From the NCBI RefSeq assembly GCF_030013595.1, contig NZ_CP122768.1: a stretch of 64,000 nucleotides of DNA. One strand, written 5' to 3'. The stretch comes from Escherichia coli (GTDB lineage: Bacteria; Pseudomonadota; Gammaproteobacteria; Enterobacterales; Enterobacteriaceae). The notes below the pieces were generated by a model, which searched no databases, was not told the origin of the DNA, and was given only the letters and a program-made list of their open reading frames with translations. The translations under genes were made by a program, and so were the position numbers. This document shows positions 41,027 through 41,770 of this stretch, one piece after another (position 1 is the first letter of the stretch; every line of letters starts with the position of its first letter).

Positions 41027-41770
41027 TTATTCTTGAGCGGAGCCAGAACTCATCTCACTGAATGCAGCCATCCTGTAACCTTCCGGGGTGACCCCAAAAT
41101 AACGCCTGAATACACTGATAAAATAAGATGTATTATTATAGCCACACTGCACAGCGATTCTGTTGATGGCACAGCTATATTGATGCAACAGCATTGCTGC
41201 CATTCTCATTCTCTCCGTAAGCAACAACTCACTGAAACATGTGCCTTCTTCTTTCAGTCTTTTTTTTAACAAACTTTCACTCATACATAACCGTGATGAC
41301 ACATCTCGCAGAGTCCAGTTTGCTGCAATGTCTGTATGAAACAACGCACCAAGCCTGCCGCTGATAGTACTGATACACGCGGTCATAAACGACGAAAACA
41401 TTTTATCTGATGAAAAAAACGCCAGACACGAAAAGGAAAGCATTTCCGCTAAATTGTCCGTATGAATCTTTTCCTCATAAAGATAATCAATCAGGATGCC
41501 CATCAATTCTGGCCTGGGAAAACTCATGCAAAGATATCGTGGCATTTTCCGGACTAAAACAACATCCTGTTTTACCCCACTACGCAACAGGTAACGGCTA
41601 ATTGTCGATTCACTGAGACTTATACGCCGAAAACATTCAGAAAAGGGCAATAACGGTCCAGCCCCTCCCCTGACAAGAAGTGCACTACCACTTTCCAGAG
41701 AGAGTACTTTTCCTTCGAAGAGCACAACAAACGGGGAATGAACAAAAATAACAGAACAGGCCTCATTCAT
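41027..41770 (-). CDS. AraC-family transcriptional regulator (moron)
   Basis: C-terminal AraC-type HTH (LRDVSSRLCMSESLLKKRLKEEGTCFSELLLTERMRMAAMLL...YFISVFRRYFGVTPEGY); start at internal ATG 41770. Confidence 0.8.
   Translation of the reverse strand: MNEACSVIFVHSPFVVLFEGKVLSLESGSALLVRGGAGPLLPFSECFRRISLSESTISRYLLRSGVKQDVVLVRKMPRYLCMSFPRPELMGILIDYLYEEKIHTDNLAEMLSFSCLAFFSSDKMFSSFMTACISTISGRLGALFHTDIAANWTLRDVSSRLCMSESLLKKRLKEEGTCFSELLLTERMRMAAMLLHQYSCAINRIAVQCGYNNTSYFISVFRRYFGVTPEGYRMAAFSEMSSGSAQE

Follow-up and report, generated by a model that had tools for sequence, protein, structure and literature searches.

Several AraC-family regulators encoded by prophages, among them PatE, PsrA, PsrB and AppY, provide phages with a documented entry into the acid-resistance network of Escherichia coli, with effects on gut passage and colonization. 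PatE, an activator of gadE, gadBC and hdeAB, increases acid resistance; PsrB binds at the promoters of hdeA and gadE; and PsrA and PsrB both act through GadE and YhiF to repress type III secretion (PMC10877973). AppY binds gadE, gadY and slp, which it activates directly, and improves survival in acid; it requires K170 for DNA binding, which is lost in a K170E mutant, and its pleiotropic regulon reaches beyond acid resistance (PMC10057817). Expression of gadE is further modulated by GadW, GadX and YdeO (PMC10057817). All characterized members of this clade act on gadE or the acid fitness island (PMC10877973, PMC10057817). Here we analyse a 64,000-nt stretch of E. coli DNA (the window) in which a prophage gene at 41027-41770 on the minus strand encodes a 247-residue AraC/XylS protein, referred to below as the regulator. 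We conclude that it is an uncharacterized branch of a well-known kind, the prophage-encoded AraC-like acid-resistance regulators, and a candidate activator of gadE.

The regulator gene is intact. Its product scores well above the Pfam cut-offs for HTH_AraC (PF00165; E 6.7e-16, 58.4 bits against a cut-off of 26.6) and HTH_18 (PF12833; E 2.7e-15, 56.8 bits against 33.6), and matches PHROG 1450, a family labelled 'unknown function', over its full length (E 8e-58). The reading frame was originally translated from an ATG at 41770, and RefSeq (PGAP annotation) instead gives a 283-residue protein from a GTG at 41878. We rejected the longer model on four grounds. Homologues of 76-87% identity are 245-247 residues long and begin with MNEACSV or MSEACSV, and the N termini of YdeO, GadW, AppY and PatE align as an M-x-x-x-C-S-V motif, as does the product started at ATG 41770. 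A Shine-Dalgarno sequence, AGGGA, lies 7 nt 5' of this ATG, and nothing comparable was found ahead of the GTG. In the STEC306 genome, which carries an allele of about 90% identity, an in-frame TAA stands three codons 5' of the ATG, so the 283-residue model is not conserved as coding sequence. In the EC11 locus the GTG itself is missing. ATG 41770 therefore reads as the start common to the family, and it appears to be the better choice.

Comparison with the allele of about 91% identity gives a ratio of non-synonymous to synonymous substitution rates (dN/dS) of 0.29-0.32 overall; the DNA-binding half, at 0.22-0.24, is lower than the N-terminal half, at 0.39-0.44. The gene is under purifying selection and is not decaying. 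The original prediction of a complete AraC-type helix-turn-helix regulator is thus borne out by the intact frame of 247 residues, the two Pfam matches above their cut-offs and a dN/dS of about 0.3.

The best NCBIfam match is YdeO (NF007407), over the full length of the protein (E 9e-42) at 143.4 bits against a cut-off of 348; the GadX family (NF007432) is matched by the C-terminal half only, at 103.8 bits against 500. Orthology to GadX was rejected on this basis, and orthology to YdeO was rejected both on its score and because the gene lies outside the ydeO/safA locus. From its sequence, the regulator is best described as a paralogue of YdeO and as the orthologue of no named member of the clade. 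Full-length blastp identities are 39% to PatE (Sakai ECs0287), 38% to the AraC-like protein of O-island 57 (OI-57) of strain EDL933, 36% to GadW, 35% to YdeO and 31% to AppY, with E values for clade members between 3e-36 and 2e-52. In an alignment of 20 sequences, C5 of the N-terminal M-x-x-x-C-S-V motif is invariant and S6 nearly so. A neighbour-joining tree puts the regulator on its own branch inside the GadW/YdeO/AppY/PatE/Psr clade, beside a Psr-like branch, with GadX and EnvY outside the clade. By these comparisons the protein belongs to this clade of AraC/XylS regulators.

Within the clade the regulator stands apart, its own group being at most 42-44% identical to anything outside that group. 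An exhaustive HMMER search of 1.84 billion representative proteins returned 16,438 AraC relatives at E <=0.001 and just 9 at E <=1e-30, so that the family defined by the N-terminal domain is a small one. All database entries for the protein carry generic names only, and a literature search for the carrier strains and the protein accession found no paper on either.

The protein consists of an N-terminal domain of about 135 residues, in which helices come after beta strands, and a C-terminal one of about 100 residues with two helix-turn-helix motifs. An AlphaFold2 model built from a 55-sequence alignment (mean predicted local distance difference test score, pLDDT, 92.6; predicted template-modelling score, pTM, 0.84) has seven helices over residues 136-245 in the C-terminal domain. 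This modelled DNA-binding domain superposes on GadX (3MKL) with a template-modelling (TM) score of 0.9, a root-mean-square deviation of 1.1-1.2 A and 44% sequence identity, and also matches the DNA-binding domains of MarA, SoxS and AraC. Recognition helix 1 (MSESLLKKRLKEE), which in the clade has the motif SESLLKK.LK, matches those of clade members at 8-10 of 13 positions and recognition helix 2 (NNTSYFISVFRRYFG) at 9-12 of 15, and K169 of the regulator aligns with the K170 of AppY. In full-length Foldseek comparisons the closest solved structures are the fatty-acid-responsive virulence regulators Rns/CfaD and CsvR of enterotoxigenic E. coli (ETEC) and ToxT of Vibrio cholerae (CsvR 1.8e-12, Rns 6e-12, ToxT 4e-9; range 1e-12 to 1e-8). 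The TM score to these full-length structures is only about 0.43, which we attribute to a differing interdomain orientation in the model.

When the regulator is set against characterized prophage AraC regulators, a homology check proposed with the original prediction, the nearest are PatE, the presumed PsrB and AppY. PatE (z0321/ECs0287, from prophage CP-933H/Sp1 of enterohaemorrhagic E. coli (EHEC) O157:H7) is likewise a prophage-borne, two-domain protein of 247 residues with the M-x-x-x-C-S-V start. It aligns over 233 residues (E 2e-52), and recognition helix 1 agrees at 10 of 13 positions. Despite the 39% identity it falls on a separate branch of the tree, and, unlike the regulator gene, patE and its phage copy lie at the tail-fibre or attachment end of the prophage, beside an insertion sequence (IS) element.

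The AraC-like gene of EDL933 OI-57 is EDL933_RS10010 (237 residues; record 1905274-1905987), which we presume from its island to be psrB (z2104). It occupies the same slot as the regulator gene, following a Q-like gene and preceding tRNA-Ile and tRNA-Arg genes and then lysis genes, but its product is only 38% identical to the regulator and is 10 residues shorter. P0013, a close relative of the presumed PsrB, forms the sister branch of the regulator in the neighbour-joining tree. The Psr genes are tied to effector and Pch loci of EHEC positive for LEE (locus of enterocyte effacement), whereas the host of the regulator is an ETEC strain, and neither LEE nor effector genes are present in the window. 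According to two reviews, psrA (z1789) belongs to OI-50; we took the potC-integrated prophage to be OI-50/CP-933N, and tblastn found no AraC homologue in this prophage in either Sakai (Sp6) or EDL933. The psrA locus tag or island may not map onto current assemblies, or the equation of the potC prophage with OI-50 may be wrong.

Among the other relatives, YdeO and GadW show homology to the regulator over its full length and GadX resembles it in the DNA-binding domain, but all three are encoded at chromosomal loci (ydeO/safA and gadXW) and not in a prophage. AppY is, like the regulator, an AraC/XylS protein of a defective lambdoid prophage (DLP12 of K-12), and its K170, needed for DNA binding, has a counterpart in K169. 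It is nevertheless the most distant clade member, and its gene stands next to ompT at the far end of DLP12 and not between Q and the lysis genes. The roles of AppY in hya and app operon expression and in RpoS stabilization are not transferable to the regulator by inference.

The window is identical in sequence to the chromosome of the porcine E. coli strain ETEC4090 (NZ_CP122620.1; faeces, Belgium), and the presumptive host targets could therefore be inspected in that genome. Its acid fitness island is intact (gadA, gadXW, mdtEF, gadE, hdeD, hdeAB, yhiD and dctR). The intergenic regions are identical to those of K-12 between hdeA and hdeD (254/254) and between hdeD and gadE (798/798), and GadW and GadX are also identical to the K-12 proteins. 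Because the island is intact and its regulatory DNA is that of K-12, our best guess is that the regulator acts in trans as an activator of gadE and hdeAB and thereby raises acid resistance, a proposal to which we give an even chance. The original prediction had pointed to phage-borne AraC regulators that rewire virulence or metabolic regulons. The relatives do behave in this way, but the regulon predicted here is narrower, namely the GadE acid fitness island, because the regulator groups with the GadW/YdeO/AppY/PatE/Psr clade. In the same island of ETEC4090 (record 240417-241670), an IS1 element adjoins slp at its 5' end, and the gene as annotated lacks 12 nt compared with K-12 and starts LESLPLS. 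The strain thus has a displaced slp promoter, which AppY targets directly in K-12, whereas the remainder of the island is intact.

The gene order along the window is thrA, arcA, deoCABD, prfC, prophage, yjjG, rsmC, leuQPV and yjjP. The lambdoid prophage, between prfC and yjjG, extends over about 22 kb (~32.4-54.9 kb). Still annotated in it by RefSeq are an integrase, a cI/Cro-type switch, genes for Rha, KilA-N and DUF968, the antiterminator Q and, for lysis, two holins and an M15 endolysin; the terminase large subunit is truncated, and no portal, capsid or tail genes are annotated except one tail fibre assembly gene. The prophage is thus a defective remnant that is no longer able to make virions. 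No direct repeat of >=11 nt that might represent att sites was found between its left (32201-33200) and right (54601-55250) ends.

Within this remnant the regulator gene lies between Q and the lysis genes. On one side are Q itself (125 residues; 43459-43836, minus strand; RefSeq, and PHROG 79 'anti-termination protein Q-like', E 4e-45) and, nearer to the regulator, a divergent low-GC pair formed by a DUF6731 gene and a gene for a 147-residue membrane protein (42051-43435, plus strand; Pfam DUF6731, PHROGs 7651 and 8552). On the other side are a tRNA-Gly gene with anticodon UCC (40535-40609, minus strand; ARAGORN, and Rfam tRNA at 65.6 bits), a lysis cassette of putative holin, holin and M15 endolysin (39039-40076, minus strand; open reading frames (ORFs), Pfam Peptidase_M15_4 and RefSeq) and a PmrG/Ais-like lipopolysaccharide (LPS) core heptose(II)-phosphate phosphatase gene (38374-38967, plus strand; NCBIfam NF011945, 205 bits against 142). 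The tRNA-Gly gene is the only Rfam match near the regulator gene. PADLOC returned no defence-system match for the regulator or for the DUF6731 pair, and a defence role for either was rejected.

We compared the regulator loci of the window, ETEC1703, STEC306 and EC11. In all four the gene stands on the late-gene strand between an antiterminator gene and a holin/holin/M15 cassette of identical type, and the three other loci contribute three further kinds of antiterminator besides the Q of the window. The remaining neighbours vary. The DUF6731 pair adjoins the regulator in the window only and is missing from the other three loci. The tRNA-Gly gene and the PmrG-like phosphatase accompany only the allele found in pigs; the tRNA-Gly gene is beside the regulator in ETEC1703 and RM10740 and is not beside the ~90% allele in STEC306 or EC11. 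In STEC306 two DNA methyltransferase genes intervene in the slot. Relatives of 36-42% identity are found in this same Q-to-lysis position, also in isolated phages (for example Lambda_2G7a), and in related prophages the slot holds methyltransferases, tRNAs, TerB, nanS-p or nothing. The GC content of the regulator gene is 0.42-0.43, compared with 0.52-0.57 in the flanking lysis and replication genes.

The variable neighbours, the shared slot and the low GC content fit a moron, that is, non-essential phage cargo, that acts in trans rather than governing a fixed neighbour. The setting described in the original prediction is accurate in that the gene is flanked by tRNA-Gly(UCC) and by the DUF6731 and membrane-protein pair, and in that it is prophage-borne, given Q, the holins, the M15 endolysin, the truncated terminase and an integrase between prfC and yjjG. 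The further proposal of lysogenic-conversion cargo also looks sound, with an intact gene of lower GC content than the phage backbone in a variable Q-to-lysis slot and with prophage-borne relatives.

A terminator scan identified an intrinsic terminator 5' of the gene (41889-41911, minus strand), consisting of a GC-rich hairpin (GCCGTCGAGCGG) and a T-run. The hairpin occupies 41911-41899 and its tail reaches about 41889, and the terminator lies 128 nt 5' of the ATG. It is kept in all four regulator contexts, behind three different Q types, with changes mainly in the loop. In the O157 prophage Sp6 a homologous hairpin lies 77 nt after Q, with a second small hairpin ahead of it. The leader and hairpin match about 1000 E. 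coli genomes, compared with 64 that have the regulator gene at full length, and the hairpin belongs to the phage backbone as a widely shared terminator module behind several unrelated Q genes. After scanning downstream of Q in ETEC1703 and Sp6 for the late promoter pR', we read the hairpin either as the late terminator tR' or as the point where the Q transcription unit ends. It should stop transcription arriving from upstream unless the polymerase is antiterminated. The same scan found no terminator after the regulator gene.

The 128-nt leader that separates terminator and gene (41771-41898, minus strand) contains the Shine-Dalgarno sequence and a putative promoter. In the ~60 nt that precede the ATG it hardly varies over four contexts and two alleles. 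A conserved block consists of TTGCAT (41830-41825), 15 nt and TATACT (41809-41804), in which, by inspection, we infer a candidate sigma-70 promoter belonging to the regulator itself. In a lysogen, transcription would start from this weak promoter downstream of the terminator, and the promoter would probably be silenced by H-NS because of the low GC content. After induction, RNA polymerase that had been antiterminated could continue into the regulator gene, as for other cargo in this slot. The protein would act in trans on the host chromosome by binding AT-rich sites at the gadE and hdeAB promoters, and possibly at those of slp and gadY. The expected outcome would be higher glutamate-dependent acid resistance, as with PatE, PsrB, AppY and YdeO. 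The N-terminal domain, which resembles those of Rns and ToxT, would serve in dimerization and perhaps in a response to a small molecule.

Several points weigh against activation of gadE and hdeAB by this route. Identity to any characterized regulator is at most 39%, and only 21-31% in the N-terminal domain. The target range could differ from those of YdeO and GadX, since the orthologue cut-offs of both families were failed, and the recognition-helix motifs do not fix specificity because they are partly shared with the fimbrial regulators Rns and CsvR. A consensus promoter scan, which covered spacers of 16-18 nt only, flagged no promoter upstream of the regulator. Read-through that depends on Q is conjecture, because the 1.4-kb pair on the opposite strand stands between Q and the hairpin. 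Finally, the added effect may be small, since the host already has GadW, GadX and GadE.

The partly shared helix motifs and an identity of at most 39% also make the main rival that of a working AraC/XylS regulator whose regulon lies outside the acid fitness island, for example in fimbriae or adhesins (as for Rns, CsvR and FapR in ETEC), anaerobic or energy genes, or RpoS stabilization (as for AppY). We regard this as possible but somewhat doubtful. It draws on the full-length structural matches, which are best for the ETEC fimbrial regulators CsvR and Rns together with ToxT, and on a clade profile that covers most of CsvR (residues 44-262, E 1e-30), as well as on the porcine ETEC host, the separate branch with its low identity beyond its own group, and the pleiotropy of the AppY regulon (PMC10057817). 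Yet sequence identity to Rns and CsvR is only about 20%, compared with 31-39% for the GadW/YdeO/PatE/Psr group, and no fimbrial, pilus or toxin operon adjoins the regulator in any of the loci examined. The characterized clade members, moreover, all converge on gadE (PMC10877973, PMC10057817).

The likeness to the fimbrial regulators also has limits within the N-terminal domain. Rns and CsvR differ from the family of the regulator in having about 26 extra N-terminal residues, which include H20. Because the profile alignment starts at CsvR residue 44, the segment with H20 is without a counterpart in the regulator. The residue aligned to the presumed position of Rns R75 is a serine in the regulator, in a stretch where the alignment is of low confidence. 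The N-terminal domains align weakly, and the alignment bears little weight for or against a fatty-acid pocket of the Rns type. We take H20 and R75 to be the ligand contacts of Rns, in part from the titles of entries in the Protein Data Bank.

A second rival is that the regulator is directed at the phage, controlling the late or lysis genes of the prophage or the adjacent cargo (tRNA-Gly, the DUF6731 pair or the PmrG-like phosphatase). Genes next to AraC-family regulators are often under their control, and the constant position on the late-gene strand between Q and the holin/holin/M15 cassette would suit such a role. We nonetheless consider it improbable. Each of the cargo neighbours is missing from some loci, methyltransferase genes intervene in STEC306, and paralogues occupy the same slot beside an unrelated lysis cassette with an S-type holin and a lysozyme. 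The allele also remains intact in a remnant unable to make virions, and the characterized prophage relatives target host genes (PMC10877973).

The full-length regulator gene is present in 64 of 5,426 complete E. coli genomes, 22 of them with an allele of 99.6-100% identity and 42 with the allele of about 90%. The first comes from pigs in 20 of its 22 copies and is found at several chromosomal sites: 13 genomes have the prfC-site arrangement exactly as in the window, and another site, near 2.4 Mb, lies inside an apparently complete prophage (ETEC1703). Genomes with the ~90% allele come mostly from cattle, sheep and farm environments or are Shiga toxin-producing E. coli. Because many of the pig genomes derive from one Belgian collection, the association with pigs may reflect clonal sampling. 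The exact 247-residue protein is present on 694 contigs and the 283-residue model on 255 more, all from E. coli.

These distributions bear on a broader proposal, which we consider a long shot, that the Q-to-lysis slot is a recurrent docking site for a radiation of YdeO/GadW-like regulators with doubly gated expression and host-adapted alleles. Three clades were found in the slot, namely that of the regulator, the Psr-like clade and that of P0017/Lambda_2G7a. Under this proposal, one gate would be the regulator's own promoter, active in the lysogen, and the other antiterminated read-through past the terminator on induction, and prophage induction would transiently reprogramme the GadE/RpoS stress network of the host. 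Its component that the two alleles are adapted to different gut environments, of pigs on the one hand and of ruminants or farms on the other, is similarly speculative.

Very unlikely, lastly, is that the intact gene is carried as a silent passenger that goes unexpressed and has no present effect on the cell, since the setting in a decaying remnant with a truncated terminase and no annotated head or tail structural genes, the frameshifted DUF6731 neighbour, the empty promoter scan and the low GC content suggestive of H-NS silencing are set against a dN/dS of about 0.3 between alleles, an intact ORF conserved at 99.6-100% in 22 complete genomes at several sites, a protein found on ~950 contigs, and a conserved promoter-like block and Shine-Dalgarno sequence.

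The branch to which the regulator belongs is restricted to E. coli and is common in porcine ETEC and in isolates of the oedema-disease type. If it is true that the regulator activates gadE, these pig pathogens would have a strain-specific input to acid survival. The Shiga toxin genes of Shiga toxin (Stx) phages occupy the Q-to-lysis slot, and activation of gadE, if true, would also strengthen the view of this slot as one repeatedly used by regulators that rewire the host. Current understanding is unchanged by our analysis, the value of which lies in correcting the start codon, in placing the protein precisely within its family and in a testable prediction of targets.

Two of the neighbouring genes deserve separate mention. 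The DUF6731 gene of the window (42048-42988, plus strand) is broken, whereas strain EC416 has an intact ORF of 313 residues. Relative to EC416, 1 nt of an A-run near 42075 is missing from the window, so that the frame shifts after about 10 codons; the RefSeq protein accordingly starts internally, at 42203, and is shorter. The frameshift may have arisen by genuine mutation or by homopolymer phase variation, or it may be a sequencing error. The gene for the PmrG-like phosphatase, with a GC content of 0.32-0.39, lies just past the endolysin gene on the opposite strand and is also present in ETEC1703. It is a second candidate lysogenic-conversion gene and could act in LPS modification.

Elsewhere in the prophage, Rfam identifies a C4 antisense RNA (83.6 bits; 49145-49232, minus strand) in the immunity region and, adjoining it, the Hfq-binding RNA isrK (67 bits; 49257-49333, minus strand). 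The pair is placed between an XRE-type repressor gene and yfdP, an arrangement that, in a lambdoid remnant, resembles the c4/icd/ant immunity element of P1 and P7. Outside the prophage, leuQPV encodes three tandem tRNA-Leu(CAG), as in K-12 (60445-60767, plus strand), and, close by, the response-regulator gene that lies upstream of bglJ has been broken by IS1 into two pseudogene fragments (59864-60563 region). An Rfam match to IS009 (226 bits; 14891-15089, minus strand) falls within the annotated nadR coding region (~14057-15289).

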